Below are positions 2,530-61,535 of a stretch of DNA of 64,000 nucleotides, in pieces. Positions within the stretch are counted from its first letter, which is position 1. Each line of letters starts with the position of its first letter. The notes beneath the pieces are model-generated. The model searched no databases and was not told where the DNA came from. It saw nothing but the letters and a program-made list of their open reading frames with translations. Source of the DNA: Squalus acanthias (lineage: Eukaryota); NCBI GenBank assembly GCA_030390025.1, contig CM059431.1:138944001-139008000 (forward strand), written 5' to 3'. The position numbers and the translations under genes are program-made.

Positions 2530-4781
2530 ACTGAGGGACAATAAACTGGGAGATTCAGGAGTGAAACTATTGTCAGCGGCTCTGAGGAACCCGGACTGTA
2601 AAATACAGGAACTGCGGTAAGTACCAGACTGTGTGAGATTGTGTTTATAATAACTGGATGTCGAACACAACATTATTATTATCAGTAACAGTGTTATTAA
2701 TAAACACTGGTGATTTACTCTGATTCCTGTTATTTCTCTGTCGGATCCCCAGGCTGCGTGCTGACGGTCTCACAGATTATTGTACGAAGGATCTCGTCTC
2801 CGCTCTCAGTACAAACCGCTCACTGACGGTTCTGCTCCTGGGTAATAATAAACTTGGAGATTCAGGAGTGAAACTGCTGTCTGCGGCTCTGAGGAATCCG
2901 GACTGTAAAATACAGCAACTGTGGTAAGTACCCGACTGTGTGAGATTGTGTTTATAACAACTGGATGTCTGACACTGCACATTATTATTTGTATCAGTAA
3001 TAGTGTTATTAATAAACACTGGGGATTTACCCTGATTCCTGTTATTCTCGCTCTCATTCCCAGGTTGGATGCTGTCGGTCTCACAGATTCTTGTGCTGCG
3101 GATCTCGCATCCGCTCTCAGTACAAACCGGTCACTGACGGTTCTGATCCTGGGTAATAATAAACTGGGAGATTCAGGAATGAATCTACTGTCTGCGGCTC
3201 TGAGGAACCCCGAATGTAAAATACAGGAACTGCTGTAAGTACCAGACTGTGTGAGATTATGTTTATAATAAGTCGATGTCTGACACTGTACATTATTATT
3301 GTATCAGTAATAGTCTTATTAATAAGCACTGTACATTATTAATAGTATCAGTAATAGTGTTATTAATAAACACTGGGGATTTACTCTGAATCCTGTTATT
3401 TCTCTCTCTGATCCCCAGGCTGTATGAAAACGGTCTCACAGCTTCTTGTGCCGAGGATCTCGCCTCCGCTCTCATTACAAACCGGTCACTGACGGATCTG
3501 AACCTGAGTTACAATAAACTGGGAGATTTAGGAGTGAAACTATTGTCTGCGGCTCTGAGCAACCCGGACTGTAAACTGCAGGAACTGCAGTAAGTACCAT
3601 ACTGTGTGAGATTGTGTTTATAATAACTATGTCTGACACTGTACATTATTATTAGTATCAGTAACTATTATTATAAACACGGGGGATTTACTCTGATTCC
3701 TGTTATTTATCTCTCTGATCCCCAGGCTGGAGGATGTCGGTCTCACAGCTTCTTGTGCCGAGGATCTCGCCTCCGCTCTCAGTACAAACCGGTCACTGAC
3801 GGTTCTGAACCTGAGCGACAATAAACTGGCAGACTCAGGAGTGAAACCACTTTTTGCGGCTCTGAGGAACTCGGACTGTAAAATACAGAAACTGGAGTAA
3901 GTAAGAGACTGTGTGAGATTGTGTTTATGATAACTGGATGTCTGACACGGTGCATTATTATTAGTAATACTAAATGTGTTATTAACAAACACTGGGGATT
4001 TACTCTGATTCCTGTTATTTCACTCTCTGATCCCAGGCTGTTTGGTATCGGTCTCACAGATTCTTGTGCCGAGGATCTCGCCTTCGATCTCAGTACCAAC
4101 CGGTCACTGACGTTTCTGAACCTGAGTAAAAATAAACTGGGAGATTCAGGAGTGAAACTACTGTCTTCGGCTCTGAGGAACCCGGACTGCAAAATACAGG
4201 AACTGTGGTAAGTATCAGACTGTGTGAGATTGTGTTTAAAATAACTGGATGTCTGACACTGTAATTCATTTTTAGTATCAGTAACAGTGTTATTAATAAA
4301 CTCTGGGTAATTACCCTGATTCCTGTTATTTCTCTCTCTGATCCCAGGCTGGATGGTGTCGATCTCACAGATTCTTGTGCCGAGGATCTCGCCTCCGCTC
4401 TCAGTACAACCGGCTCTCTGACTGTTCTGTCCCTGGGATCAAACTCCTTCACAGACCGATCTGTCCCCGCTCTCCGCCGCCTCATACTGACCTGCAGGAG
4501 TCTGGAGCAGATCGGTGAGTTCTTGTGTTAATGTTTAATGTAATAAATAAAATATCAATGGGATTCAGTCAATTTATTAGGTAATATTTGTCTGCAATTA
4601 TCATTGAATTATCAACCACAGGGTCGCTGAAATTTACACTGTTTTGCAAGTTGCTTATTTCCTGCCTGTTTAATCTTTAATCTCTTTCAGTCTGGGGGGT
4701 AATCAGTTCAGTTCAAATGGCGAGAGAGATCTGGAGTCGCTGCGGGGATTCAGACGTGGACTGAGTGTGGAATTTGATTGA
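2530..4781 (+). CDS. NLR (NACHT-LRR, NLRP/NLRC3-like) gene, C-terminal LRR exons: 2530-2616, 2753-2923, 3064-3234, 3419-3589, 3726-3896, 4037-4207, 4348-4514, 4691-4781; the 5' part is outside the window
   Basis: Five exact 171-bp phase-2 exons with AG/GTAAGT boundaries encode ribonuclease-inhibitor-type LRR pairs (LxxxGLTDSCAEDLASALSTNRSLTxLxLxxNKLGDSGVKLLSAALRNPDCKIQEL), the typical NLRP exon architecture. The terminal exon LGGNQFSS... stops at 4779-4781. The penultimate exon is 167 bp, 1 nt short of phase 2. Confidence 0.88.
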
Positions 4782-5029: not shown

Positions 5030-6133
5030 CCACTGAGGAGTCGGATTCTGTAACAAGTGTCCCTGTGTACAGTGTGTGTCTCTCCCAGTGAGGAGTCGGA
5101 ATCTGTAAGAAGTGTCCCTGTGAACAATGTGTGTCTCTCTATGTGAGGAGTCGGTATCTGTAACAGGAGTCGGACTCTGTAACAAGTGTCCGTGTGTACT
5201 GTATGTGTCTCTCCCATTGAGAAGTCAGACTCTGTAACAAGTGTCCCTTTGAACAGTGTTTGTCTCTCCCAGTGAGGAGTCAGAATCTGTAACAAGTGTT
5301 CCTGTGTACAGTGTGTGTCTCTCAGTGAGAATTCAGACTCTGTAACAAGTGGCCCGGTGTACAGTGTGTGTCTCTCACAGTGAGGAGTCAGACTCTGTTA
5401 CAACTGTCCCTGTGTACAGTGTGGGTCTCTCCCAGTGAGGAGGCAGACTCTGTAACAAGTGTCCCTGTGTGCAGTGTGTGTCTCTCCCAGTGAGGAGTCG
5501 GACTCTGTAACAAGTGTCTCTGTGTACAGTGTGTGTCTCTCCCAGTGAGTAGTCAGACTCTGTAACAAGTGTCCCTATGTACAGTGTGTCTCTCCCAGTG
5601 AGGAGTCAGACTCTGTAACAAGTGTCCCTGTGTACAGTGTGTGTCTCTCCCAGTGAGGAGTCAGACTCTGTAACAGGTGTCACTGTGTACAGTGTGTGTC
5701 TCTCCCAGTGAGGAGTCAGACTCTGTAACAACTGTCCCTATGTACAGTGTGGGTCTCTACCAGTGAGGAGTCAGACTCTGTAACAAGTGTCCCTGTGTAC
5801 AGTGTGTGTCTCCCAGTGAGTAGTCAGACTCTGTAACAAGTGTCCCTGTGTACAGTGTGTGTCTCTCCCAGTGAGGAGTCAGACTCTGTAACAAGTGTCC
5901 CTGTGTACAGAGTGTGTCTCTCCCAGTGAGGAGTCAGACTCTGTAACAAGTGTCCCTGTGTACAGTGTGTGTCTCCCAGTGAGTAGTCAGACTCTGTAAC
6001 AAGTGTCCCTGTGTACAGTGTGTGTCTCTCCCAGTGAGGAGTCAGACTCTGTAACAAGTGTCCCTGTGTACAGTGTGTGTCTCTCCCAGTGAGGAGTCAG
6101 ACTCTGTAACAAGTGTCCCTGTGTACAGTGTGT
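5030..6133. repeat. 55-bp tandem repeat, about 20 copies
   Basis: Unit CAGTGAGGAGTCAGACTCTGTAACAAGTGTCCCTGTGTACAGTGTGTGTCTCTCC; more diverged at the 5' edge. Confidence 0.95.
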
Positions 6134-7164: not shown

Positions 7165-7802
7165 TCGTCAGTCCCCTCTGGCGGAGGCCTGGATCAGTCT
7201 CCTCTGGAGACGGTCTCGGTCAGTCCCCTCTGGAGGAGGTATCGGTCAGTCCTCTCTGGAGGAGGTCTCGGTCAGTCTCTGGAGGTGGTCTCGGTCAGTC
7301 TCCTCTGTAGGAGGTCTCGGTCAGTCCCCTCTGGAGGAGGTATCGGTCAGTCCTCTCTGGAGGAGGTCTCGGTCAGTCTCTGGAGGTGGTCTCGGTCAGT
7401 CTCCTCTGTAGGAGGTCTCGGTCAGTCCCCTCTGGAGGAGGTCTCGGTCAGTCCCCTCTGGAGGAGGCCTCGGTCAGTCCCCTCTGGAGGAGGTCTCGGT
7501 CAGTCTCCTCTGGAGGAGGTCTCGGTCAGTCCCCTCTGGAGGAGGTCTCGGTCAGTCTCCTCTGGAGGAGGCCTCGGTCAGTCCCCTCTGGAGGAGGCCT
7601 CGGTCAGTCCCCTCTGGAGGAGGTCTCGGTCAGTCCCCTCTGGAGGAGGTCTCAGTCAGTCTCCTCTGGAGGAGGTCTCGGTCAGTCCCCTGTGGATAAG
7701 GTCTCTGTCACTCCCCTCTGGAGAAGGCCTCGGTCAGTCCCCTCTGGAGGATGCCTCGGTTAGTCCCTTCTGGCGGAGGTGTTGGTCAGTCCCCCGCTGG
7801 AG
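7165..7802. repeat. 26-bp minisatellite, about 24 copies
   Basis: Unit GGAGGAGGTCTCGGTCAGTCCCCTCT. Confidence 0.95.
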
Positions 7803-8419
7803 CAGGCGTCTTCAAACATGGACGTCGCAGCCAGGATGTGACATCATCAAAAATTAACACCCCGGGCTGCACTCCTTTCAAAATGGATGTGTATGTGTGT
7901 GTGTGTGGGTGTGTGTATATGTGTTTCTGTAAATTGCTGAGTGTATGACTGTGTGTGACTACGAAAGTGTGTATGTGGCTGTGTTTCATGTCACTTTAAA
8001 TTTTAGTTCAATTTGTGTACGGGGAGAGTGTGCGTGTGAGAGAGAGAGAAACAGACAGATAGACAGTCAGTGAGAGAGCGAGACATGAAATCAAAAGGCA
8101 CTATTTTAAATAGAAAGCCTGGTTCTGTAGGCCACAAAGTGAAAAGATAAGTTACTGAAAAGATTCTTTCTGGTTTTGAACTTCCAAAACAGCAGTCATT
8201 CCTCTACAGGCTGGCCTGCGTGCGTGTGTGTGTGTGAGAGAGAGAGAGAGCAAAAGCTGGTCTTTGTGTGAGATGTGGTCTGGTGTCTTATTACCTGCTG
8301 TTGTTGTATTAAACCCTACTTATTTCATTCTGGCCTTGTCCACATGTAATGCTGCTGTGTGTCACTTTATTGCACTTCACTTCAAGACAGAGTGAGAGAG
8401 ACACACTAATCCAGACAAC

Positions 8420-13749: not shown

Positions 13750-16700
13750 TGTTTGCCAAATATGTAGTTACCGTGTCTTTAAAATGATTTGTGTTCAGGC
13801 CTGTCAAAGCAGACACGACTACAGATATCTGCACATACTAAAATCAAACCTAAGCTTTATTTCTGACAGACTTGGCGACATTCCCCAACAGTAAGAGGAT
13901 TATCTCACGACATTCCAGAATCAGACAATCTTACCGAGCGTAGGACACAGCAATCACAGCCCACACTCTCTGTCCGGGGAACTGTGGCAGCTGAGGCTCT
14001 TCTATGGAGGGTTCTCGCGGGTCAACTTCTAGATGGAAAATCACTATTTTGATATCTTTCCTTGTGATTCTGCCCATGGGGATGTGACTGTCAGCATTTC
14101 TCACCAGTTGTATTCCTTCCGATCAACACACTCTTTCATTCACATGGAGTGTCAAATCAGATGTTTCTCTTCCGGCAACCTAACACCTCAGCTTATTCTC
14201 CATAGTCTAACACCATATCGCCCAGCACATACTCTTATGCAGCTGGTTATTGGTCTCTGACTGAGAACGTGCAGCTCTGAAGTATCTTTCTCAACGATGT
14301 TCTATTTAGACACGAGCACTTCTGTTCGTAGCTTTCTATCCAACGTCATGTTCTCACATTGGGTACCCCTACTGTGTCAAGGCAATAAGCAGACACGTTT
14401 GTCTCCAGTTTTTCTTTTCTCCTTTTGGTTGAGAAATCTATTGAACCGAAAGTTCCCTTTTTATACACATTTGCAATAGTGGCTCTTTCTTCTAGTATGC
14501 TTCGATGTAAAAGTTGGACTACCGTGTTAACAGACAGGAGCTGAGAATGAGCATCACTACACTCCCGCAGATATAGAGTTAGACTAACGTGTTAACAGAC
14601 GGGAGCTGAGAATGATCATCACTACATTACCGCAGATATAGAGTTAGACTATCGTGTTAACAGCCAGGAGCTGGGATTGATCATCACTACACTCCCGCAG
14701 ATATAGAGTTAGACTGTCGTGTTAAAGGACAGGAGCTGGGAATGATCATCTCTACACTCCCGCAGATAAAGAGTTAGACTATCGTGTCAACAGACAGGAG
14801 CCGGGAATGAGCAACACCACACTCCCGCAGATATAGAGTTAGACTGTCGTGTTAACAACAGGAGCTGGGAATGTTCATCACTATAGTCGCGCAAATATAG
14901 AGTTAGACTATCTTGTCAACCGACAGTAGCTGAGAATGATCACCACTGCACTCCCGCAGATATAGAGTTAGACTGTCGAGTTAGTAGATGGGAGCTGGGA
15001 ATGATCATCACTGCACTCCCACAGAAATAGAGTTAGAATGTCGCGTTAACAGACAGGTGCTGGGAATGATCATCACTGCACTCTCGCAGATATAGAGTTA
15101 GACTATCGTGTTAACAGACAGGAGCTGAGAATAAGCATCACTACACTCCCACAGATATAGAGTTAGACTATCGTGATAACAGACAGGAGCTGGGAATGAG
15201 CAACACTACACTCCCCCAGATATAGAGTTAGACTGTCGTGTTAACAACAGGAGCTGGGAATGATCATCACTACAGTCCCACAGATATAGAGTTAGACTAT
15301 CGTGTTAACAGACAGGAGCTGGGAATGATCATCACTGCTCTCCCGCAGATATAGAGTTAGACTGTCGTGTTAACAGACAGGAGCTGGGAATGATCATCAC
15401 TGCACTCAAGCAGATATAGAGTTAGACTGTCGTGTTAACAACAGGAGATGGGAATGATCATCACTACACTCCCGCAGATATAGAGTTAGAATATCGTGTT
15501 AACAGACAGGAGCTGGGAATGATCATCACTACACTCCCGCAGATATAGAGTTAGAATATCGTGTTAACAGACAAGAGCTGAGAATGATCATCACTACACT
15601 CCCGCAGATATGGAGTTAGACTATCGTGTTAACAGACAGGAGATGGGAATGATCATCACTACACTCCCGCAGATATAGAGTTAGAATATCGTGTTAACAG
15701 ACAGCAGCTGGTAATGATCATCAATACACTCACACAGATAAAGATTTAGACTATAGTGTTAACAGACAGGAGCTGGGAATAATCATCACTGCAGTCCCGC
15801 AGATATAGAGTTAGACTGTCGTGTTAACAGACAGGAGCTGAGAATGATCATCACTACACTCCCGCAGATGTAGAGTTAGACTGTCGTGTTAACAGACAGG
15901 AGCTGGGAATGATAATCACTACACTCCCGCAGATGTAGAGTTAGACTGTCGTGTTAACAACAGGAGCTGGGAATGATCATCACTGCACTCCCGCAGATAT
16001 AGAGTTAGACTATCGTGTTAACAGACAGCAGCTGGTAATGATCATCACTACACTACCGCAGATATAGAGTTAGACTGTCATGTTAACAACAGGAGCTGGG
16101 AATGATCATCACTGCACTCTAGCAGATATAGGAGTTAGACTGTCGTGTTAACAGACAGGAGATGGGAATGATCATCACTACACTCCCGCAGATATAGAGT
16201 TAGAATATCGTGTTAACAGACAGCAGCTGGTAATGATCATCAATACACTCACACAGATAAAGATTTAGACTGTCGTGTTAACATACAGGAGCTGGGAATG
16301 ATCATCACTGCACTCCCCAGATATAGAGTTAGACTATCGTGTTAACAGACAGGAGCTGGGAATGATCATCACTGCAATCCCACAGATATAGAGTTACACT
16401 GTCGTGTTAACAGACAGGAGCTGGGAATGATAATCACTGCACTGCCGCAGATATAGAGTTAGACTATCGTGTTAACAGACAGGAGCTGGGAATGTTCATC
16501 ACTGCACTCCCGCAGATATAGAGATAGATTATCGTGTTTACAGACAGGAGCTGGGAATGATCATCACTGCACTCCCGCAGATATAGAGTTAGACTATCGT
16601 GTTAACAGACAGGAGCTGGGAATGATCATCACTGCACTCCCGCAGATATAGAGTTAGACTGTCGTGTTAACAGACAGGAGCTGGAAATGATCATCACTGC

Positions 16701-16950
16701 ACTCCAGCAGACATAGAGTTAGACTATCGTGTTAACAGACAGGAGCTGGGAATGATCATCACTGCACTCCCGCAGATATAGAGTTAGACTATCGTGTTAA
16801 CAGACAGGAGCTGACAATGAGTATCACTACACTCCCGCAGATATAGAGTTAGACTATCGTGTTAACAGACAGGAGCTGGGAATGATCATCACTAAACTAC
16901 CGCTGCACGTTGTTAATGAACATTTATGAACCTTCCCTAATTCGGCTACA
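13750..16950 (-). mobile_element. Solo LTR with a 6-bp TSD (GGATCC) containing an expanded satellite
   Basis: TG...CA termini (TGTTTGCCAAAT / ATTCGGCTACA), GGATCC at 13744-13749 and 16951-16956, minus-strand TATAAAA at 14459-14465 and AATAAA at 13856-13861. Confidence 0.7.
14512..16902. repeat. 65-bp tandem repeat, about 37 copies
   Basis: Unit AGAGTTAGACTATCGTGTTAACAGACAGGAGCTGGGAATGATCATCACTGCACTCCCGCAGATAT. Confidence 0.97.
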
Positions 16951-18945: not shown

Positions 18946-19592
18946 GCTCCTCAGTTCATGAAGCTCCGCCCATTAAAATTACTGAACGGAATGTAATCTC
19001 AGAGGGAATGCTCTCTGGGCACGGCCCCGTATCCCTGAAGCGAGCGTCTCCTCTGAATTCTGGGTTACAGATATGAGACCGAGGGGGAAAAATTCAGTTG
19101 GTTGCGCCTCCCGTTAGCGCCTTAAGAGGGCGCTAATGGGGCGCAAAGCAGCTAGTGCCCGGGCGCAGCGATGTTTGCGCCGCTCACGAAATTAACTACA
19201 CATTTTGCGGCGGCGCTAAACTTTATCGCCGCGATCTCCTGCGTGCGCAGATTGTGACATCATACGAGAGTGCAACGCCCTTGTGGCGCCCCGGAGCAGA
19301 ATTTCAGTGGCGCCCCCATCCTTACCGCCTGGCGCATCCAACGACCAGTAGAGTGGAACGCTATCAATCGCTGTGGGGCTGGGGGCGGCGCTATTTAAAG
19401 GGGGCCTCTTCCTGTCTTTCTCTGTGGTTGACATTTTTGCACCACTCGTTCTGAGAGAGAGAGAGAGATTCGGAGAGAGAGAAAGAGAGACTTCTGCATT
19501 GAGTCAACGCTGTGTGAGGTAGTTTTGGCTACTCATCCTAACTTCGCTGGTACTTTGGTTTCTGGCCTTCATAACTTTGCTTGCTAAGAGAT

Positions 19593-20623
19593 ATGGGGGC
19601 TGCACTGATGGGGGGCGTCGTCCTGCGCCAGCTGAATCGGAGGAGACAGAGACGCAGAGAGAGAGTGGCAATGATGGCCAGATGGAGGAGGGCCAACAGG
19701 CGTCTGTACAGGAGAGCTTACCCTCCCAGGGTATATCGTGAACAGCTCGCCTACATTCATATGTCTGAGGAGCAGTGTCTGCAAAGGCTGCGCTTCAGCA
19801 AGGAGGTGGTCACTGAGCTCTGCCACCTGCTGCAGCCAGATCTGCAGCCTCAACTGAGGTCCAGGACGTCTCTGTCGGTGTCAGTGAAGGTCACAGTGGC
19901 TCTGAACTTTTATGCTACTGGCTCATTTCAATCTGCTGTTGGGGACATCGCCAATATCTCCCAGTTTGCGGTGCATTGCTGCATCTGGAAGGTCACAAAT
20001 GCCCTCTTTAAAAGGAGACGAGAGTTCATCTCTTTCCCCATGACCCCAGACAAGCAGCAAGAACGCGCTCTGGGCTTTGCGAGGATAGCGGGCTTCCCCA
20101 TGGTGCAGGGCGCCATTGACTGCACGCATGTGGCTTTGCGTGCTCCGCATGAGAATGCCGAGGATTTCCAGAACAGAAAGGGGTTCCATTCCTTGAATGT
20201 TCAGTTGGTCTGTGACCACAGACAGCTGATACTCGCTGTCAATGTCCACTATCCTGGCAGCTGCCACGATGCTTTCATCCTGCGCCAGACTACTGTGGCA
20301 GAACTTTTCGAGGCACCGCATCAGCCAGTTGGTTGGCTTCTCGGGGACAAGGGGTATCCACTGAGCACCTGGCTGATGACACCGCTCCGTACGCCCAACA
20401 CCCCTGCTGAGCTGTGGTACAACGAGAGCCATCAAGCTACCAGGAACATCGTGGAGCACACAATGGGCGTGCTCAAGCAACGGTTCCGCTGTCGCGACCA
20501 TTCTGCAGGAGCCCTGCAGTACTCGCCTGAGCGAGTTTCCAACATCGTAGTTGTGTGCTGCATGCTGCATAACATGGCAATCCTCAGGACCCAGCCAATG
20601 CCACCAGGCCTTGGAGCACCACC

Positions 20624-20654
<31 letters not shown>

Positions 20655-20753
20655 GAGGAGGATGATCAGCAGCAGCACCAAGGCGTGAGGGTGGCCCACA
20701 ATGGTGAAACTGCAAGGGCCGTCCGTCAGTGGCTGATAGCAAGCCGCTTCTAG
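19593..20753 (+). CDS. Harbinger DDE transposase (HARBI1-like), intact, 386 aa
   Basis: GAIDCTH, NRKGFHSLNVQLVCD, PGSCHDAFIL, LLGDKGYPL, YNESH..TRNIVEHTMGVLKQRF and CCMLHN motifs; no stops; first ATG at 19593. Confidence 0.93.
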
Positions 20754-21064
20754 GCCCCTGCTGTGGAAGTGGCTTCTGCCATTGAGAACAGCAAGAATGA
20801 ACCCAACACGCAACCCCTAAGCCGGCCAAGGCACCAATGATTCCAAACACCAAACATGTATATTTTGAGTAACAAAACTTATTTATTTTACAAACTCTGT
20901 GTGTGTCATTTCTTCATGACAAACTCATACAAAGAAACACAAAAAAACAGTCATTACCATAACTGGTTCTCACAACCTGGAGATCATGTGCAAAACACTC
21001 AACAAAAGTTTGACCACGAACCTCGGCCTTTAATAAAAAAATGACCAGCATTTTGTCAAACCTC

Positions 21065-22854
21065 CTACATCGAGGGTGAACTCCTTCCCGTGCGCCCTTC
21101 GCCCCTTCTTACCCTACTGCTCCTCCGCAATGGGACCTCAGTGGCTGCAGCAAGGCTGGTGGAAGGCTGCTGACTGTCAGGCCCTGACAATGCAGATGCC
21201 CTTGAGGGACGGCCTCGACCAGTTCTGGGCCTGGAGGGCCCGGCTGCAGACTGCACCAACTCTGCATGGGCGGCAGCAGTCTGTCCTACAGGCGGTGGCA
21301 ACTGCAGTGGAGAAGTGACAGTGGTGGCAGCAGGAATGCTGTCATCTTGAGCGAGGACAGCAACTCCCTGCTCGACCGGCACACTGGCACTCCCACGGGG
21401 CAGCACCTCAGCATCCGGAGCAATCTGCTGGAGCACAGATTGCTGGCCTGCTGCGGCGCAGTGAGAGCCCCGGGGAAATGTGAACGAACCAGCGAGGATG
21501 GCAGCAGACAGTGCTCGCGTGGCCTCAATCTGAGTCTGCATGAGAGCAGTCTGAGATTGAATTGCAGCACTGAGCTTCAGTGTCGCATCCGCCTGCGCTG
21601 CAGCGAAGTGCTCCACACTCCTTGCCAGTGCTTCAATGCATTCGGGCACCCTACCCACTGCAGCCATGAGCTCAGTGTGCATGCCCACCGCCTGGGTGTT
21701 CATTTCCACGATCAGCCACTCCTCCTCTGCGTCCAGTGCAGCAGGACTCGCTGGCATACTCTCCCTCCGGGGAGAAGGCCCCCGAGCTTCCCTACCCCCA
21801 TCGCGTTGCTGCAGCCCGCTGGGTCCTGGAGCTTCACCCTCATCAGACCCTTCGCCCCTGCTCCCCTCCAGGGAAGGCGTGTTCCCAGTGTCGGCATGGG
21901 CTTCCTCGGGAGAGGGTGGCACTGATGCTCCGGCTTCCTCTTCCTCCTCGGCTGCAGCTTCACTCCCACTGGCAGCTTCAGGGCCCGTCTCCTCAGCTGG
22001 TGAATCACCATCTGAAAGCAGGGAGGTACAAGAGTGGCTTTAGCGTGAGGACAGGGTGGCAGTAAGGGAGGAATAAGTGCAGCGAGTTAGTAAGTTGGAT
22101 TGAAAGTGTCAAAGGCTGGTGTTGTGAGGGACAAGTGGAAGGACAGAGGACAAAAAGGTGATGACCTTACCATTGCTGTCCAGAACGGGGTCGGCGTCTC
22201 CAGTGGCGACGGGACCGATCACCCGGCTTGCCACAATCCTGTGGACGCGCTCCTCAAGATCGCTGAGGGGTTGCAGCTGAGGCCGCCCTCCACCTGTCCG
22301 TTGCTGCTGTCTCCTATTATGCGCCAGCTTGGCCTGCAAGAAAAAGGACGGCGTCTGAGTAAATATACAGCCATGGTCTTGCCTGATATGCCTCCCATAG
22401 GTGAATAGCCCTTACTGTATACAGCCATGGTCTTGCCTGATGTGCCTCCCATAGGTGAATAGCCCTTACTGTATGCAAAGTATGGAATGTGTGTGTGTGC
22501 TTCATGAAAGGGCCATAGGTGTTGGATGAGTGTTGTTAATTGTGGTTTTAAGACCCTCTGGCCATAGAGTGAGGTTGAGATAGAGGGATGGAGAGGTATT
22601 GCAAAAAAGCCACTCACCCTGACGACCCGAGTGAGGTCGTTGAACTTTTTCCGGCATTGGACATGGGTCCTGGGCACCATGCTCCTGGAGGAGACGCGCT
22701 GAGCCACCTCCCTCCACACTCTTCTGTAGTCGTGCGGCAAAGGCCTCCTGCCACTCTCTGGGTACAGTATTGCTCTTCGACGCTCCACCGCGCCAACCAG
22801 AGCATCCAAGGCCCGCTCGGTGAAGCGCTCAGCTCGTTCTCTCACCCTCTCCAT
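21065..22854 (-). CDS. Harbinger Myb/SANT-like DNA-binding protein, 3 exons (22618-22854, 22171-22333, 21065-22011), about 448 aa
   Basis: RFTERALDALV..W.EVA..VS..RTHVQCRKKFNDL, then AKLAHNRRQQQRTGGG. GT-AG sites have compatible phases (0, 1) and give a continuous ORF. Confidence 0.85.
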
Positions 22855-23234
22855 CCTTGGCTGGAAAATGGATTCACAGGTCTCTCCAGGCCGAGATTCA
22901 AGGCTGCAATGAGCAGGGTGTGGCTGGGGAGCAAGATCGCCCCCCCCTTTAAGAACTGGCCGGCGCCAGTGTGTCTGTGTTCCCTCGCTAACTGGCAGCA
23001 CCTGCGCTGCGCTCGTGCTCTGAGTTAGCGCCTCACTCCTCGGCCTTTGCGCCTTAAGACAGGTGTGCAGCGCCTGATTTAGCACTCCAATCACCTCCCG
23101 GGGCGTTAAAAGTGAAGTTTCCAGTCAGTGGCGATAATTAGCGCCAGGCGCTAATTTTTGCGCCCGGACGATATTTGCGCCCCAAACGGGGCGCGACTGA
23201 ATTTTTCCCCTCTAATATTTCTAACTCAGTGGAA

Positions 23235-32901: not shown

Positions 32902-35292
32902 AACATAGAAACATAGAAGATAGGAGCAGGAGCAGGCCATTCTGCCCCTCGAGCCTGCTCCGCCATTCGATGAGATCATGGCTGATCATCCAAACTCAGT
33001 ACCCTGTACCTGCCTTCTCCCCAGATCCCTTGAAACCTTGAGCTTTAAGAAATATATCTAACTCATTCTTGAATATATTTAATGACTTGGCCTCAACTAC
33101 CTTCTGCGGTAGAGAATTCCATAGGTTCACCACTCTCTGGGTGAAGAAATTCTTCCTCATTTCTGTCCTAAATGGCTTACCCATTATCCTTAGATTATGA
33201 CCCCTGGTTCTGGACTCTCCGACCATCGGGAACATTCTTCCTGCATCTAGTTTGTCCAGACCTGTCAGAATTTTATATGTTTCGATGAGATCCCCTCTCA
33301 TTCTTCTATACTCCAGCGAGTATAAGCCCAATCGACCCACTCTCTCCTCATATGTCATTCCTGCCATCCCAGGTATCAGCCTTGTGAATCTTCGCTGAAC
33401 TCCTTCCATGGCAAGAACATCCTTCCTCAGATAAGGCGACCAAAACTGCACACAGTACTCAAGGTGTGGTCTCACCAAGGCCCTGTACAACTGCAGCAGG
33501 ACATCCCTGTTCCTATACTCAAACCCTTTCGCTATGAAGGCCAACATACCATTTGCCTTCTTCACCGCCTACTGCACCTGCATGCTTACTTTCAGCGACT
33601 GGTGCATAAGGACACCCAGGTCTCGTTGCACTTCCAATTCTCCCAATCTATTGCCATTCAGATAATAGTCTGCCTTTCTGTTTTTGACACCAAAGTGGAT
33701 AACCTCGCACTTATCCACTTTATATTGCATCTGCCACGCTTCTGCCCACTCACCCAACCTATCCAAATCATCCTGGAGTTTCTCGGTATCCTCCTCGCAG
33801 CACACACTCCCACCCAGCTTTGTGTCATCTGCAAACTTGGAGATATTACATTTAGTTCCCTTATCTAGATCATTAATGTATATTGTGAATAGCTGGGGTC
33901 CAAGGACCGATCCCTGCGGTACCCCACTAGTCACTGCTTGCCACTCGGAAAAAGACCCATTAATTCCTACTCTCTGCTTTCTGTCTGGCAACCATTTCTC
34001 TATCCAAGTCAATACCTTGCCCCCAATCCCATGTGCCTTAACTTTACACGCTAATCTCTTATGCGGGACCTTATGGAAAGCCTTTTGAAAGTCCAAATAC
34101 AGCACATCTACTGGTTCTCCCTTATCTATTTTCCCAGTTACATCCTCAACAAATTCCAGTAGATTAGTCAAGCACGATTTAACTTTTCTAAATCCATGTT
34201 GACTTTGTCCGATACTGTCACTGTTTTTCAAGTGCTCAGCTATTACATCCTTTATAATGGACTCTAGCATTTTCCCCAATACCGATGTCAGACTTACCGG
34301 TAATTCCCCGCTTTCTCTCTACCACCCTTTTTGAATAGTGGGGTTACATTAGCTACCCTCCAATCCATGGGTACAGTTCCAGATTCCATCGAATGTTGGA
34401 AGATCATCAGCAATGCATCTACTATTTCTAGGGCCACTTCCTTAAGTACCCTAGGATGTAGATTATCAGGCCCTGGGGAATTATCAGCCTTCAATCCCGT
34501 CAATTTCCCTAACACCATTTCCCTGCAAATACTGATTTCTTTCAGTTCCTCCCTTTCATCAGACCCTATGTTCTCCAACATCTCTGGGAGGTTATTTGTG
34601 TCCTCCTTTGTGAAGACAGAACCAAAATATGCATTTAATTGGTCTGCCATTTCTTTGTTCCCCATTATAACTTCCCCCGCTTCTGACTGCAAGGGACCTA
34701 CACTTGATTTCTCTAATCTTTTTCTCTTCACATATCTATAAAAGCTCTTACAGTCAGTTTTTATGTTCCCAGCAAGCTTACTTTCATATTCTATTTTCCC
34801 CTTCTTAATTAATCCCTTTGTCCTCCTTTGTGGAATCCTAAACTGCTCCCAATCCTCAGGGCTACCGCTTTTTCTGGCCAATTTACATGCCCTCTCCTTG
34901 GATCTTATGCAATCCCTAATTTCCCTTGTTAGCCACGGTTGAGTCACCTTTTTTGTTTTATTCTTATGCCACACTGGGATGAACAAATTCTGTAGTTCAT
35001 CCATGCAGTCTTTGAATGTTTGCCATTGCCTATCCACCATCAACCCCTTGAGTGACATTCCCCAATCAATCCTACCCAATTCGCGCCTCATACCATCATA
35101 GTTTCCTTTATTTAAATTCTGGACCCTAGTCTCTGATTCAACTACTTCACTCTCCATCCTAATGCAGAATTCTATCATATTATGATCACTCTGACCCAAG
35201 TGGCCTCGTACAACAAGATTGCTAATTAATCCTTTCTCGTTACATAATACCCAGTCTAAGATGGCCTGATGTCTGGTTAGTTCCTCGACATA
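32902..35292 (-). mobile_element. CR1 LINE, 5'-truncated, young subfamily
   Basis: ORF2 pieces of 301, 236 and 189 aa with RT motifs, and a (CATAGAAA)n tail. It interrupts block B, whose empty paralogue is at 40260-40500. Confidence 0.95.
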
Positions 35293-35892
35293 TTGAGAAA
35301 GGAGGAGTTTGACGTTGACCAGAGCCGCACTGGGCCTGATATTTGTGAGCTCATCCTTATATTTACTGTTCTATGTCCCTTTGTTCGGTGTCAGCTTAAG
35401 CTCATTATATTATACAAATATGGAACTATTAAGAGGGGTGACCCAAACTGTTCAAAGCCTTCTGTTTTAAGGAGGGTCTGAAAGGAGGTGAGGGAGGGGT
35501 AAAGGTGGAGGGGTTTAGGCAGGGAGTTCCAGAGCATGTCACCTACACAAATATTGCATCATGTTCGCATGTGCCTGCTGTCAGACCGCAGTGTTTTACA
35601 ACGTTTTACATTGAAAAAATACAGTTATTAGATGCAGCTAAATTATCACTAAATGGCCCAGGGTGTTTCAAATTGTTTTCCCTAATGCCAGCTGTACAAT
35701 AGCCACACATTCAATGTAGCCTCACACGGTGCGATGTCCTGTTCCAGTTCCATATATGTAGATGCAGAATAAATTTCCATTAGTTTATTTGAACCCAAGA
35801 ACTTAATATATTTCTAACGGGTTGGATGAAGGAACATGATCCATCGACATGTTTTTATTATTTGATTTGAAATGAGGGCTCATAAAAGTATT

Positions 35893-48520: not shown

Positions 48521-50229
48521 CATATGCTATAATATTTATTTGAGCGTCCCCATGACTTACCCTTGTCCCTCTTTCTTACAGCGAACTTATTGACAATGGT
48601 GACTCTCTCCAGAGGAAAATGCGGCCTTTCCAAATGTATCTCGGTCTACATGGGGGCCATGGCAACAGCAGATCTACTGGTCATGATCTTCAATGTAATC
48701 CTATATCACATTTTGAGTAAACACTTCCCATATTCATTTCTGTCCTACACTGCCGTTTTTAAGTTCATGATATATATGTGTAGTGTCAGCCTATATATGT
48801 CGGTGTGGTTTACAGTCTCCTTCACATTTGATCGATTTGTAGCTATATGTTGTCAGAAGTTTAAAACAAAGTATTGCACAATGAGAACTGCGGCCGCGGT
48901 TATAACAACGGTCTCTGTCCTCGTTTATTTAGAGAACATCCCCTTTTGGTTTGCATATGAACACGAACAAATAATCAACAATGTTCCCTGGGGGTTCCGC
49001 CCCAGTGCGGCCTTTTTTTCATCGCCTGCGTAGCATACTCCCAGTTAGAAAATATTTTAATTACATATCTTCCTTTTGGTTTGATATTACTGTTTAATTG
49101 TTTGACAGTCAGACGTATTTTAGTGGCCAGTGGAGCCCGCAGGGGACTCCGGGGTCACAGCAGTGAGAATCAGAGCGATCCAGAGATGGAGAACCGAAGG
49201 AAATCCATAATTTTACTGTTCATTGTATCGGCCAGTTTTATATTGATGTGGCTGACATCTGCCGTGAGTTCTATAGTTAACAACCTGGCCGTGCATCACC
49301 GACTCGATTATACATCTCCTGCATACATCGCCACTGAAACCGGATATCTGCTCATGTATTTGAGCTCCTGTACAAACACGTGTATTTATGCAGCTGCACA
49401 AACTAAATTCAGAGAAGAGTTGAAGAAGGTGGTGAAATCTCCTTGGACATTTATACTGATATTGGTTAAAAAAAAGAATAATCAAACTAAAGCTTCCTGT
49501 CCAAACTAGAGTTAAATTACTGACCGTGTTCCATTTTAGAATGACTATCTTTCTCTTAGGAAGAAATAGGATTGTTGTTGTGAAAATAAGCATTAATCAG
49601 GAGCCATTTCTCCCACTTTGTGCCGTGTGTTTGATGTCTGCTGCTTTCCCCGGGTGAACATAATAGTTTCCTGCTAAAACAGTGCACTTCCCGCTCAAGA
49701 TTCAAAGAGAAGTCATGACTGAGCTTCAGCAGTGGAGTAGAACATGTGGGCGTCAGCGTTAACTGCCTCACGCCGCAGGCACTGGAATGAGACGCTCAGT
49801 TTAATTAACAGATACAGTTTCCTTTAGTGTAGAAACAATGTGTTACAATGGTGGTTAGATGTAATTCTGTAATCTTGGTATAAATGTTGCAGGCGCTGGT
49901 CTCCCCATCAGACTCCGCCCCCCATTGTCTCCTGGACCAATAGAACGGGACCCTATCTCCTGACCAGTGTCAAATGATGGAGACAGTAGGAACTTGACTC
50001 GTCAATGTGACATTAGACATATTTGTTCACAAATGTTTACTGAAAATCATAACTGGTCATCAAACTGTTGGAAAGTTATAACGGAGAAACAGATTATTAG
50101 ACCCAACCAGTACTTGTCGGCCTTTACACTCCACCCGATCAAATAGTCCCAATCACTTTACCCAACCTTTCTCAACATCTCTTCCACCTATTGTTATTCA
50201 TCCATCTAGCGAATTTAAGCGTGAACATT

Positions 50230-50945: not shown

Positions 50946-52336
50946 AAATTACAGACCGGTAAGCCTGACATTGGTATTGGGGAAAATGCTAGAGTCCATT
51001 ATAAAGGATGTAATAGCTGAGCACTTGAAAAACAGTGACAGGATCGGACAAAGTCAACATGGATTTACAAAAGGTAAATCGTGCTTGACTAAACTACTGG
51101 AATTTTTTGAGGATGTAACTGGGAAAATAGATAAGGGAGAACCAGTACATGTGGTGTACTTGGACAATCAAAAGGCTTTCAATAAGGTTCCGCATAAGAG
51201 ATTAGCGTGTAAAGTTAAGGCACATGGGATTGGGGGCTAGGTATTGACTTGGATAGAGAACTGGTTGGCGGACAGAAAGCAGAGAGTAGGAATTAATGGG
51301 TCTTTTTCCGAGTGGCAAGCAGTGAGTAGTGAGGTACCGCAGGGATCGGTCCTTGGACCCCAGCTATTCACAATATACATTAATGATCTAGATAAGGGAA
51401 CTAAATGTAATATCTCCAAGTTTGCAGATGACACAAAGCTGGGTGGGCGTGTGTGCTGCGAGGAGGATACCGAGAAACTCCAGGATGATTTGGACAGGTT
51501 GGGTGAGTGGGCAGAAGCGTGGCAGATGCAATATAACGTGGATAAGTGCGAGGTTATCCACTTTGGTGTCAAAAACAGAAAGGCAGACTATTATCTGAAT
51601 GGCAATAGATTGGGAGAATTGGAAGTGCAACGAGACCTGGGTGTCCTTGTGCACCAGTCGCTGAAAGTAAGCATGCAGGTGCAGCAGGCGGTGAAGAAGG
51701 CAAATGGTATGTTGGCCTTCATAGCGAAATGGTTTGAGTATAGGAACAGAGATGTCCTGCTGCAGTTGTACAGGGCCTTGGTGAGATCACACCTTGAGTA
51801 CTGTGTGCAGTTTTGGTCGCCTTATCTGAGGAAGGATGTTCTTGCCATGGAAGGAGTTCAGCGAAGATTCACAAGGCTGATACCTGGGATGGCAGGAATG
51901 ACATATGAGGAGAGATTGGGTCGATTGGGCTTATACTCGCTGGAGTATAGAAGAATGAGAGGGGATCTCATCGAAACTTATAAAATTCTGACAGGTCTGG
52001 ACAAACTAGATGCAGGAAGAATGTTCCCGATGGTCGGAGAGTCCAGAACCAGGGGTCATAATCTAAGGATAATGGGTAAGCCATTTAGGACAGAAATGAG
52101 GAGGATTCTCTTCACCCAGAGAGTGGTGAACCTTTGGAATTCTCTACCACAGAAGGTAGTTGAGGCCAAGTCATTAGATATATTTCTTAAAGCTAAAGGT
52201 ATCAAGGGATATGGGGAGAAGGCAGGTACAGGGTACTGAGTTTGGATGATCAGCCATGATCTCATCGAATGGCGGAGCGGGCTCGAGGGCCCGAATGGCC
52301 TACTCCTGCTCCTATCTTCTATGTTTCTATGTTTCT
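50946..52336 (+). mobile_element. CR1 LINE, 5'-truncated, young subfamily
   Basis: 331-aa RT and C-terminal ORF, 3' UTR and (TTTCTATG)n tail. Confidence 0.95.
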
Positions 52337-57800: not shown

Positions 57801-57875
57801 TATAATGCTTTGTGTCTCAGCTGAATGTAATGTTTGAATTCATATCTTTCCAGTAATTGTTTGTAAATGATATTG

Positions 57876-59871
57876 GACTGGGTACTGTGCAATGAGAAGG
57901 GACTAATTAGTAATCTTGTTGTACGGGGACCCTTGGGTCAGAGCGATCATAACATGATCGATTTCTCACTCGAAATGGAGAGCGAAGAAATTGACTCAGA
58001 GACTCAGGTCCTGAATTTAAACAAGGGGAATTATGATGCCATTAGACGGGAACTGAGTAGGTCTGATTGGACAACGTTCCTGGGAGGACTGGAGGTAGAT
58101 AAACAATGGCAAGCATTTAAAGATAGAATGACAAAATTGCAAAAATTGTTTATACCAATCTGGCATAAAAGGAAATCTAAAAAGGTGACTCAACCGTGGA
58201 TAACAGGGGAAATTAGAGACAGCATAAAATCCAAAGATAGGGCGTATAAAATAGCCAAAAAACGCGCCAGAGCGGAAGATTGGGAACAGTTTAAGATAGA
58301 GCAAAGGAGGGCAAAGGGCTTAATCAAGAAGGGCAAAATAGCTTACGAAAGCAAGCTGGCGGAAAATATAAAAACTAACTCCAAAAGCTTTTATAAGTAT
58401 ATCAAGAGGAAAAGACTGGTGAAAACCAAAGTTGGTCCATTGCAGTCAGATACGGGGGAATATATAATGGGAAATAAGGAAATGGCAGACCAACTAAATG
58501 CATACTTTGGGTCAGTCTTTACGAAGGAAGACACAAAAAACCTCCCTGGGATATCGGGAAAAATAGGGACATTGGCAAAGGAGGAACTGACGCAAATCAA
58601 TATCTCTAAGGATATGGTGTTAAGGAAGCTAAAGGGATTGAAGGCGGACAAATCCCCAGGGCCTGATAACATGCATCCTAGGGTACTGAAGGAGGTGGCC
58701 CTAGAGATAGCGGATGCACTAAGCATGATTTTTCAGAATTCATTAGACTCGGGAACAGTGCCCATGGATTGGAGGGTAGCTAACGTTACCCCCACTATTC
58801 AAAAAGGGGGGTAGGGAAAAAGCAGGTAATTACAGACCTGTAAGCCTTACATCAGTTGTGGGCAAAATGCTGGAGTCCATCATTAAGGATGAAATAGCCG
58901 AGCACTTAGCAAATGGGGACAGGATAGGACAGAGTCAACATGGATTTACAAAGGGTAAATCGTGCTTGACTAATCTATTGGAATTTTTTGAGGGAGTAAC
59001 TGGTAAAATAGATGGGGGAGAGCCAGTAGATGTGGTGTACCTGGACTTCCAAAAGGCCTTCGATAAGGTCCCACATAAAAGATTAGCATGGAAAATTGAA
59101 GCTCATGGGATAAAGGGGAAAGTATTGACGTGGATAGAGAACTGGCTGTCAGATAGAAAACAGAGAGTTGGAATAAACGGCTCATTTTCTGAATGGCAGG
59201 CAGTAACAAGTGGGGTACCACAGGGATCTGTCCTGGGTCCCCAGCTGTTCACAATTTATATTAATGACCTGGATCAGGGAGTCGAATGCAGCATTTCCAA
59301 ATTTGCAGACGACACTAAACTAGGAGGGGGGGTGGGCTCAGAGGAGGAGACCAGGAAGCTCCAGAGCGATTTGGACAGACTGGGTGATTGGGCGGATAAA
59401 TGGCAGATGCACTATAATGTGGACAAGTGCGAAGTTATCCACCTTGGGTGCAGGAACGGGAGGGCAAATTATTATTTAAATGGCAATAAATTGGGAGAGG
59501 GGGAAGTACAGAGAGACCTGGGTGTTCTTGTACACCAGTCACTGAAGGCGAGCATGCAGGTGCAACAGGCGGTCAAGAAGGCAAACGGTATGCTGGCCTT
59601 CATAGCAAAAGGGTTGGAATACAGGAACAGGGATACCTTGCTGCAGCTGTACAGGGCACTGGTGAGACCACACCTCGAGTACTGTGTACAGTTTTGGTCG
59701 CCTCATCTGAGGAAAGATGTTCTTGCCATGGAGGGGGTGCAGCGGCGATTCACCAGGCTGATACCAGGAATGGCGGGATTGACCTATGAGGAGAGACTAT
59801 GTAGTTTAGGGATGTACACACTGGAGTTTAGAAGATTGAGAGGGGACCTCATAGAAGTGTATAAAATTCTG
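57876..59871 (+). mobile_element. Internal CR1 ORF2 fragment (no 5' end, no 3' UTR or tail) inserted in the copy 3 intron
   Basis: Open for 2 kb apart from a +1 C near 58790. The flanks rejoin as TAAATGATATTG|AATACAGCTGAC, matching copy 2 intron TAAATTATATTGAATACAACTGAC at about 46484-46507. Confidence 0.92.
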
Positions 59872-60641
59872 AATACAGCTGACATCTGATGCCGCTCCCG
59901 AGATTCCCCTCGCCATTTAAACCGATGAGATTAAATGTAAAATTCCATCGATTGCTCCCTGGGGCCGCTGTAGTAACTCATCAAATTGGCTCGGTGTATC
60001 ACATGGTCCCAGCCCCATGGCGGGATGGTTTCAGCACTCCACACTACAATGGAACATGTGTTTGTATGTATGTAAGGGAATCCGCTTCTTTATTGTCTCT
60101 CGAATACGAACAAGTTACAGAACCATCCAAGGTTGCCCTTTAAGGGGCTTTTATCTGTAACTGTACCGTCCCTGCGAGGTACTCCGGCTTGACCTGGACC
60201 GCACAGTTAGATTGTGAATGGAGGCTCAGTCCAGTGTCAGGGGCGATAGTGATTGAAATGACAATCGGGAGAGATGTATGACGGTCGGCTGATCAAATGT
60301 CGCCGGTTTTACATTATCTCACAAAGTTAATATCCTCCTATATCAGTGCCTGGTTGTCTGTGGTGGTGGGGATCGCTCTCCGTGTCCATTCCAGATACTG
60401 AATCCGAGCGACCCTCCTCCCCGCGCCGCCTGGACAACATCTGACTGAAGTATGCTGGAAGGATGGTCATTCTCAGTCCCTCTATAGTGAGTGTAGAATG
60501 ATGCGTTTATTTTGAAGAACATGTCGACAACGCTCACCTATATTAAAAATAATAGGAACACATCTCAACATTTCCCCACAATAAGCTGTGAGATTTATCT
60601 GAGTGTCCCCGTTACTGACCTTCTGCCCCTTTTTCTCACTG

Positions 60642-61535
60642 CGAACCTACTGACAATGATGATTCTCTCCAGAGGAACCTGCGGCCTTTCCAAGTGTATC
60701 TCTGTCAACATGTTGACCATGGCAACAGCAGATCTACTGTTCATGATCCTCAATGTATAGTGTATCACATGTGTACAAATCACTTTCCACATTCCTTCCT
60801 GTCGTACACTGCAGTTTGTATGAAAATTATTTACATCCATTCTGCCAGCTTGGATATGTCGGTGTGGTTTACAATCTTGTTCACATTTGAACGATTTCTA
60901 GCCTTATGTTGTCAGAGTTTGAAAACAAGTAATTGCAGAGTGAAAACTGCGGCTGTGCCCATAACAACGGTCTCTGTCCTGATCTATTTACAAAGCATTC
61001 CAGATTTGATTGCCTATAAACCTGATCGAATAATTAACAATATTCATTGGGGTTGTTACCCCGGATTGGACTATTTTTCATCGCCTGCAGGTGTCGGGTT
61101 CTCCCGGTTACAAGGTATTTTAACGATGTGGAGTCCATTTGCTTTGATATTACTGTTTAATTGCTTGACAATCAGACGTATTTTGATGGCCTGTAGAGCT
61201 CGCAGGGTACTCCGGGGTCACAGCTGTGAGAATCAGAGCGATCCAGAGATGGAGAACCGGAGCAAATCCATCATTTTACTGTGTATCGGGCAGTTTAATA
61301 TTGTTTTCGCTGACATCTGCCGGAGGTTTTTTAACTGACAAATCCCGCTCATAAGCCACCCGATTATACATCTAATGCACACATCGCCACAGCAAGTGGG
61401 CTTATGCTCATGTATTTGATTTCCTGCACAAACACGTGTATTTATGCAGCTACAGAAACTAAATTCAGGGAAGAGCTGAAGAAGATGGTGAAATCTCCTT
61501 GAACATTTATTCTGATTTTGGTTAAATTAATGTAA
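60642..61535 (+). pseudogene. GPR139-like GPCR copy 3, exon 2 only
   Basis: Same TM motifs as copies 1 and 2. Acceptor AG mutated to TG (60640-60641), frameshifts near 60757 and 61280. Intron homology to copy 2 at 57812-57875 and 59872-60230. No exon 1 found. Confidence 0.88.

Follow-up and report, generated by a model that had tools for sequence, protein, structure and literature searches.

The window, i.e. the whole stretch of 64,000 nucleotides that was analysed, carries at 2530-4514 the LRR exons (87, 5 x 171 and 167 nt) of a shark NLR gene, which is complete in the germline assembly and belongs to a family of at least about 245 copies in that assembly. We consider it likely that these exons encode the LRR tail in a multi-exon NLR gene that is complete, and that germline crossover and short-tract conversion, together with diversifying selection, have given rise to a repertoire of predicted cytosolic sensors. 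In the mechanism that we propose, duplication, unequal crossover and short conversion tracts would spread neutral sequence across the family and even it out, with conversion, rather than repeated duplication alone, doing the homogenising. Selection would keep or favour different residues on the face formed by strands and loops, conversion would also recombine existing patches, and the outcome would be a set of germline-encoded sensors differing in surface and length, whose variable residues would bind variable ligands, probably of pathogens, and which may signal via a CARD-like N-terminus.

LRR exon array and gene structure

The array lies on the forward strand and opens with an exon of 87 nt that encodes one repeat (2530..2616, phase 2-2) and is preceded by the NACHT exon. 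Downstream follow five middle exons of 171 nt (2753..2923, 3064..3234, 3419..3589, 3726..3896 and 4037..4207), a terminal LRR exon of 167 nt (4348..4514) and the last coding exon (4691..4781), in which the homologous frame stops at 4781 and the frame coming from the 167-nt exon stops at 4764. The middle exons have the NLRP-type design, i.e. 171 nt, frame-preserving, two repeats of 28+29 aa and the exon border inside a beta-strand, and the fourth of them matches Pfam LRR_6 (E 7.5e-7); 171 nt is also the length of 140/153 middle exons in the sampled family arrays. The six introns between the LRR exons (2617..4347; 136, 140, 184, 136, 140 and 140 nt) are homologous, and TRF reported the array as 6.0 copies of a 311-nt period (score 1665, 70% matches).

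The first-pass annotation had placed exon starts at 2753, 3064, 3419, 3726, 4037 and 4348, recurring at about 311 bp. All six are present with AG acceptors, at start-to-start spacings of 311, 355, 307, 311 and 311, the five 171-nt exons are phase 2-2 with GT donors, and after splicing one frame is open from 2530 to the end of the exon starting at 4348. The period is broken at 3235..3418, because the 184-nt intron there has a 44-nt internal duplication (3283-3375). The initial G that was thought to keep the frame does begin all six of these exons but is no rule of the family (G in 85, T in 62 and another base in 6 of 153 middle exons), and it is not what preserves the frame.

The exon at 4348..4514 had been read as a sixth copy of the same unit; it is a different, terminal exon type, with about 60 differences from the middle exons. 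Its length is 168 nt in 94/99 sampled arrays, and in the window one G is missing at its 3' end as compared with a copy of the gene on contig C1406 that is about 98% identical. The resulting 167-nt exon ends in phase 1, therefore the frame of the last exon is shifted and, as assembled, an out-of-frame tail replaces the last 29 residues. The one-base deficit is either a real frameshift or an assembly error in the G run, and the 3' end of the window gene copy may thus be frameshifted. Screening of the 64-kb window for tRNA genes found none, and a tblastn search of the window for spare LRR exons returned only the array itself.

The proposed identity of the exons as NLR LRRs was borne out by the LRR_6 match and by the domains found upstream. 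On the same strand, an open frame of 604 codons at window -8995 to about -7184 encodes NACHT, winged-helix and HD2 domains (PF05729, E 2.8e-37; PF17779; PF17776). The NACHT exon ends in phase 2 at a GT donor upstream of the window (G000:C7:138936815), a phase that fits the 87-nt LRR exon, and N-terminal exons extend to about window -26100, the NACHT and N-terminal exons together lying 7-26 kb upstream of the LRR exons. Of 2347 homologues, the best 120 derive from automatic annotation of eight shark species and are 81-90% identical; nearly all of these 120 bear the name 'NLRP3/12-like' or a similar one, and their lengths are often 57 residues apart, e.g. 906, 963 and 1020. In homologue P0002 and one N-terminal exon, Pfam found no PYD or CARD match at E<=1, and hence not the N-terminal pyrin domain by which the NLRP subfamily is defined, while Atlas features point, as a weak lead, to a CARD at the N-terminus (score 0.87). 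B30.2 was absent from the Pfam scan of P0002.

Elsewhere in the window, a DDE_Tnp_4 frame (19575-20750, forward strand, E 5.6e-40) and a Myb/SANT-like frame on the opposite strand (22222-23124, E 8e-9) have a layout (19575-23124) that we take to be that of a Harbinger/PIF-type transposon. Two partial frames of rhodopsin-family GPCRs (7tm_1; 48961-49506, E 4.9e-9, and 60619-61335, E 1.8e-6) probably represent pieces of receptor genes from a repeated family that is interspersed with the NLRs. Frames judged by eye to be LINE-like endonuclease/reverse transcriptase lie at 33572-35370, 51241-52236 and 57867-59886, and there are three minisatellites (5165-6133, 55 nt x 17.8; 7167-7806, 26 nt x 24.8; 14512-16903, 65 nt x 36.9). 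A long higher-order satellite about 53-79 kb upstream of the window (L006-L008) contains many spurious minus-strand open frames.

Family size and number of LRR units

Haplotigs and pseudogenes included, the assembly holds at least 245 exact matches of the NACHT motif, at least 189 of the terminal-exon motif and at least 541 of the LRR exon-end motif, those listed being concentrated on C7 (137-158 Mb) and C29. We sampled 99 arrays from the 100 listed of the 189 terminal-motif matches (89 are unlisted); three of the 100, namely the window, the C1406 copy and one at a contig end, were not re-extracted. Collapsing of 13/99 arrays as at least 98% identical left 86, and the analysis passed over exons of other lengths, exons containing stops or faulty splice sites, and introns shorter than 125 or longer than 150 nt.

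The C1406 copy (G000:C1406:128001-172000, L009-L013) is colinear over the whole gene, 97-98% identical, and represents either the other haplotype or a recent duplicate. The five units recur in it in unchanged order, its terminal exon is 168 nt long, and an additional stretch of about 1.6 kb immediately precedes its first LRR exon. Its five units were retained in the piN/pi, per-base diversity and codon-model analyses; for intron distance, consensus and PHI-like tests, species neighbours, haplotype linkage, NACHT and residue combinations, either this copy was removed or window pairs were excluded.

The number of middle units is variable, as had been predicted, although between paralogues and not between individuals: among the 71/99 arrays without long introns, 28 have none, 12 have one, 13 two, 11 three, 3 four and 4 five. 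Near-identical copies with zero middle units lie near the starts of three large contigs (L038, C9:152061; L039, C13:26199; L040, C16:161981), possibly as a subtelomeric duplication, and their first LRR exon has no AG acceptor.

At 1.63 LRR motifs per sampled array, the 541 motifs imply about 330 arrays, which is in line with the at least 245 NACHT matches, so there is no large orphan cassette pool. This bears on the possibility that LRR combinations are assembled per cell, in the manner of VLRs or by splicing, through somatic conversion or combinatorial exon skipping. Such assembly would fit the frame-preserving middle exons, all of which share this property, the short conversion-like tracts found in the germline (see below) and human NLRP3, which according to the available text of PMC6642158 stochastically skips one 171-nt exon; it is nevertheless highly unlikely given that the gene is complete in the assembly, that the motif counts leave no large donor pool and that the near-identical C1406 copy keeps the same five units in unchanged order. 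Contigs from putative RNA runs (4/15 listed runs, 85% likeness) do contain exon-to-exon joints in related copies, as well as loose ends that fit the end of the NACHT exon. Since their sides are short, the units are interchangeable and DNA genes with fewer units exist, these joints are not assignable to exon skipping. We give equally little credence to the wider idea that sharks possess, beside antibodies and TCRs, hundreds of cytosolic LRR receptors whose patches are micro-converted somatically too or whose exons are skipped in a cell-specific way. If true, it would give a jawed vertebrate a diversified receptor system resembling that of the VLRs, but inside the cell.

Position and diversity of the variable residues

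Residues are numbered by their position in the first (A) or second (B) repeat type of the 171-nt exon. The junction codons (R, W, L, Q, E, W), the triplets that follow (RAD, DAV, YEN, EDV, FGI, DGV) and the second-strand words (VLLLGN, VLILGN, DLNLSY, VLNLSD, FLNLSK, VLSLGS) were found as first annotated. To locate them we used the AlphaFold2 model of homologue P0002, not of the spliced protein of the window, in which the LRR blocks are confident (pLDDT 82-94) while the mean pLDDT is 63 overall and the NACHT part is poor. In either repeat type the strand spans positions 3-5 (residues 763-765 and 791-793), and positions 7-8 fall in the following loop, which, together with the diversity counts, supports the placement of the variable codons at strand and strand-following positions. 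The triplet had been assigned as a whole to the x positions of the LRR motif; by our own motif numbering this does not hold for its third residue, A9, which is the ladder position (Asn/Cys) and is mildly variable (V in 94 and N in 17 of 116 units). The top fold match of the model is NLRP3 (E 1.9e-25), and it deviates from ribonuclease inhibitor (RI) by 1.9-3.9 A over about 300 columns. The same LRR face is established as ligand-binding in RI and in VLRs. The LRR concave face is likewise named as a ligand-binding surface, for PGIP and VLR, in the available part of PMC3341825, and the variable residues are accordingly predicted, from the homologue model, to be ligand-facing surface positions.

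Over 116 intact middle units from 54 arrays, piN at the eight codons singled out by the first-pass annotation was 0.429, as against an intron pi of 0.081, i.e. about five times the intron diversity, and the scaffold had a piN of 0.069 and a piS of 0.099. Several bases of the variable codons are near saturation (0.6-0.72), and every inner intron column is lower (maximum 0.51). The third positions of A8, B3 and A3 are quiet (0.02, 0 and 0) while their first or second positions vary; at A5, A7, B7 and B8 silent diversity is raised as well. The eight residues occur in 99 distinct combinations in 111 units, and in 9/9 shark species sets A5, A7 and B8 rank within the top eight positions for variability.

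Variation extends to LRR strand positions inside the NACHT exon (last 60 codons), with an entropy of up to 3.0 bits over 27 copies; residue 115 of the last 300 in this exon (L001) is highly variable among the 27 paralogues. This exon is not modular, and cassette modularity is therefore not needed for the variation.

Selection on the variable codons was assessed with a codon model (our own GY94 grid script) on 98 units, with two trees (all sites; scaffold and intron) and intron pseudo-codons as control. Pooled omega at the variable codons was 5 on the all-site tree and 11 on the scaffold and intron tree, both values being probably too high on account of recombination; the other 48 codons gave 0.7-1.0. 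In the control, omega was 1.0 over 117 pseudo-codons, of which 2-4 narrowly passed the LRT cut-off; the top LRT was 12-22 in pseudo-codons versus 96-357 at A5, A7, A8 and B8. Codons A5, A7, A8, B5, B7 and B8 passed on both trees, as did A3, which had not been listed before, whereas A9 and B3 passed on one tree only; weak passes were seen at the non-strand sites A16, A20 and B19, for A20 on both trees. The proposed diversifying selection is thus supported by both the diversity and the model values. The excess over introns holds family-wide and disappears in recent sister copies: in 27 unit pairs from 9 sister gene pairs (7 from the array comparison and 2 chosen by eye, with units not of 171 nt in both skipped), variable codons differ at 10/648 bases (0.015), scaffold at 0.012 and introns at 0.014, and in these pairs no ongoing fast point change at the variable codons was seen. 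The diversity is therefore old or arrives stepwise, and the model omega is likely recombination-inflated.

A decaying family under relaxed constraint, or with local mutation hotspots such as a junction CpG or error-prone patches, could vary with no selection for diversity. The scaffold omega near 0.7-1.0 would agree with this, as would the 40/99 arrays that are not fully intact, the 74/153 middle exons with CG, TG or CA (the CpG decay series) at the junction and the recurrent single-base deletions near the second variable patch. Scaffold omega and the count of only 59/99 arrays that are fully intact indicate copies that are relaxed or dead, or else errors in the assembly, and CpG decay accounts for part of the junction codon variation only. 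The explanation is already largely refuted, and in our estimate extremely improbable, in view of the fivefold excess near saturation, the quiet third positions, the recurrence of the same positions in every species set and the recent sister pairs, which lack the excess that a hotspot would give. A hypermutation hotspot at the variable codons was not supported by the quiet third positions (A8, B3, A3) and the sister pairs.

Single-base deletions do recur near the second variable patch. An identical one at exon nt 83, where this patch starts, occurs in 4 exons of 3 arrays (L062, L071 and L083, on unplaced contigs) and is either a common converted frameshift or a recurrent sequencing error.

Similarity of units and exchange between them

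Homogenisation within the window array was part of the initial proposal and proved wrong at the level of the array. The four window introns compared, the 184-nt intron being excluded, are not near-identical; they are 10-16% apart in 6/6 pairs, above the family mean of 8.1%. Across the family, introns are as far apart within genes as between genes (0.081 in both, 73 versus 4762 pairs), and only 1/77 units has its nearest neighbour in its own gene; array-level homogenisation was rejected on these two results. Units are arranged star-like around a consensus at a median distance of 3.3%, the window units being among the more diverged (6-9%). By scaffold, the nearest neighbour belongs to the same species for 231/306 units versus 60 expected, a count that isoform models may inflate, and the variable residues likewise group by species (202/306).

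Silent divergence in the NACHT exon (0.086-0.093) is close to intron divergence (0.075-0.081), therefore recent expansion of the family explains much of the likeness between genes. In 136 gene pairs, with 5/32 NACHT pieces dropped for stops, NACHT pS was 0.093 versus an intron distance of 0.075, and the two were correlated (Spearman 0.53). Units at different positions are, in turn, equally alike, which requires repeated internal duplication or exchange.

Direct marks of exchange were found in individual arrays. Array L025 has one unit fewer than its sisters L021 and L023, with the reading frame kept, and its second intron starts like intron 2 of the sisters and after about 10 bases continues like their intron 3; this switch inside an intron is the mark of an in-frame unequal crossover. 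The preceding exon of L025 differs from the sister exon at 7 sites, all within a 30-nt tract at nt 65-94 that covers the second strand and all matching the neighbouring unit (p 8e-5, post hoc). Similarly, all 10 differences between L022 and L024 lie in the last 67 nt of one exon (p 9e-4, post hoc). The unit loss and the clustered tracts support the proposed unequal crossover and conversion. The further idea that diversity is generated by whole cassettes alone was not supported, as exchange tracts go down to tens of bases and LRR positions in the NACHT exon vary too.

At the exon start, two 7-nt haplotypes, in which one base is silent (r2 0.56 for nt 1 with nt 4, 193 exons), carry different codon sets at A7, occur together in 22/55 arrays and are unlinked to 22/22 other polymorphic sites (r2 <= 0.14). 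Furthermore, 78 unit pairs whose introns and scaffold diverge by less than 2% show 4.4 differences among the 8 variable residues, and where near-identical units differ in a codon, roughly half of the changes involve more than one nucleotide (2.4 of 4.6). A PHI-like test (own script) was significant at windows of 50 and 100 (p 0.0025 and 0.0065) and not at 10 or 25.

The same family could have arisen by birth and death only, a few master units having been copied, as genes and as exons, in recent bursts, with strong positive selection on point mutations at the variable codons and little conversion. Its correlated NACHT and intron divergence, the star-like arrangement of the units and the weak PHI signal are what such a history would leave. 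It is less easily reconciled with sister copies that have no variable-codon excess yet have clustered tracts, with a partly silent haplotype whose flanks can be identical between classes and both classes of which can sit in one array, and with the multi-nucleotide share of codon differences. We regard it as unlikely; the tract and linkage evidence favours conversion on top of duplication, as in the germline mechanism proposed above.

Comparison with known systems

Vertebrate NLRs are usually viewed as few and conserved. For human NLRPs, LRR exons of 171 nt, frame-preserving and of 28+29 aa, are described and the VLR analogy is drawn in the available text of Hoss et al. 2019 (PMC6642158); both the modular design of the exon and the analogy have therefore been published before, and exon modularity is ordinary NLRP anatomy. 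The shark family shares with human NLRP3 and the NLRPs the 171-nt exon design and the border inside the beta-strand, and the top fold match of the homologue model is NLRP3. Unlike the human NLRPs, it comprises hundreds of paralogues with 0-5 middle units, introns about 8% apart and variable strand residues, and the homologue has no Pfam PYD and an N-terminus that looks, on a weak lead, CARD-like. What is new is the combination of a known exon anatomy and a known mode of diversification in a very large jawed-vertebrate NLR family.

An expansion of NLRP-related genes, with 43 putative NLRs in all, was reported in the whale shark (Tan et al. 2021, PMC8455134) and is probably the same family, the link being made through automatic homologue names; the available part of that report contains no analysis of LRR exons, variability or conversion. 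We found no literature on LRR hypervariability or conversion in shark NLRs in a search confined largely to openly accessible papers and to their main texts. In the zebrafish, the accessible text of Howe et al. 2016 (PMC4852459) describes hundreds of clustered NLR-B30.2 genes with gene conversion and with 0-6 variable middle LRRs beside a fixed terminal one, again compared with VLRs. There, however, the authors describe the LRRs as 'not particularly variable' and judge that the recognition module lies elsewhere, with selection on B30.2, whereas in the shark family the LRR strands carry the variation and the homologue scan contains no B30.2. Outside the animals, the ROCO LRR-GTPases and NB-ARC-TPR genes of the brown alga Ectocarpus are described in the text available of Zambounis et al. 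2012 (PMC3341825) as having one repeat per exon, exon shuffling and diversifying selection on the concave face, with a VLR comparison; their exons are of 72 nt, with spare inverted or non-coding LRR exons in introns, and those of the shark are of 171 nt.

Lamprey VLR genes are incomplete in the germline and are completed somatically with cassettes that flank them. The shark genes resemble them, by analogy, in an LRR solenoid whose variable concave face is built from modules. The likeness that had been drawn to VLRs is apt to this extent and finds no support as a mechanism, as the shark gene is whole and undergoes splicing, the number of cassettes agrees with the number of genes and no donor pool was seen in the motif counts.

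The closest in mechanism, by analogy, are the fungal HNWD/het-d/het-e NLRs, for which the parts available of Paoletti et al. 2007 (PMC1805685) and Ament-Velasquez and Saupe 2026 (PMC13449251) report concerted repeat evolution, variable repeat number and few positively selected surface residues. As in HNWD, the shark genes are NACHT receptors with repeats alike within and between loci, variable in number and with few positively selected codons. Homogenisation within and between loci with grouping by species is seen in the equal within- and between-gene distances and in the same-species neighbours, and positive selection on few interaction-surface codons in the results of our own implementation, with its recombination caveat and no sister-pair excess. 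The fungal repeats are WD40, TPR or ANK at few loci while those of the shark are RI-type LRR exon-intron units at hundreds; in the fungal sources available, repeats tend to group by gene, which they do not in the shark family, and function has been shown. LRR strands diversified like those of fungal HNWD and plant resistance receptors suggest that a jawed vertebrate uses NLRs to sense rapidly changing ligands directly. The family would thereby be a predicted natural library of binding surfaces on an RI-type scaffold, in which a few codons per unit can now be named as candidates for specificity.
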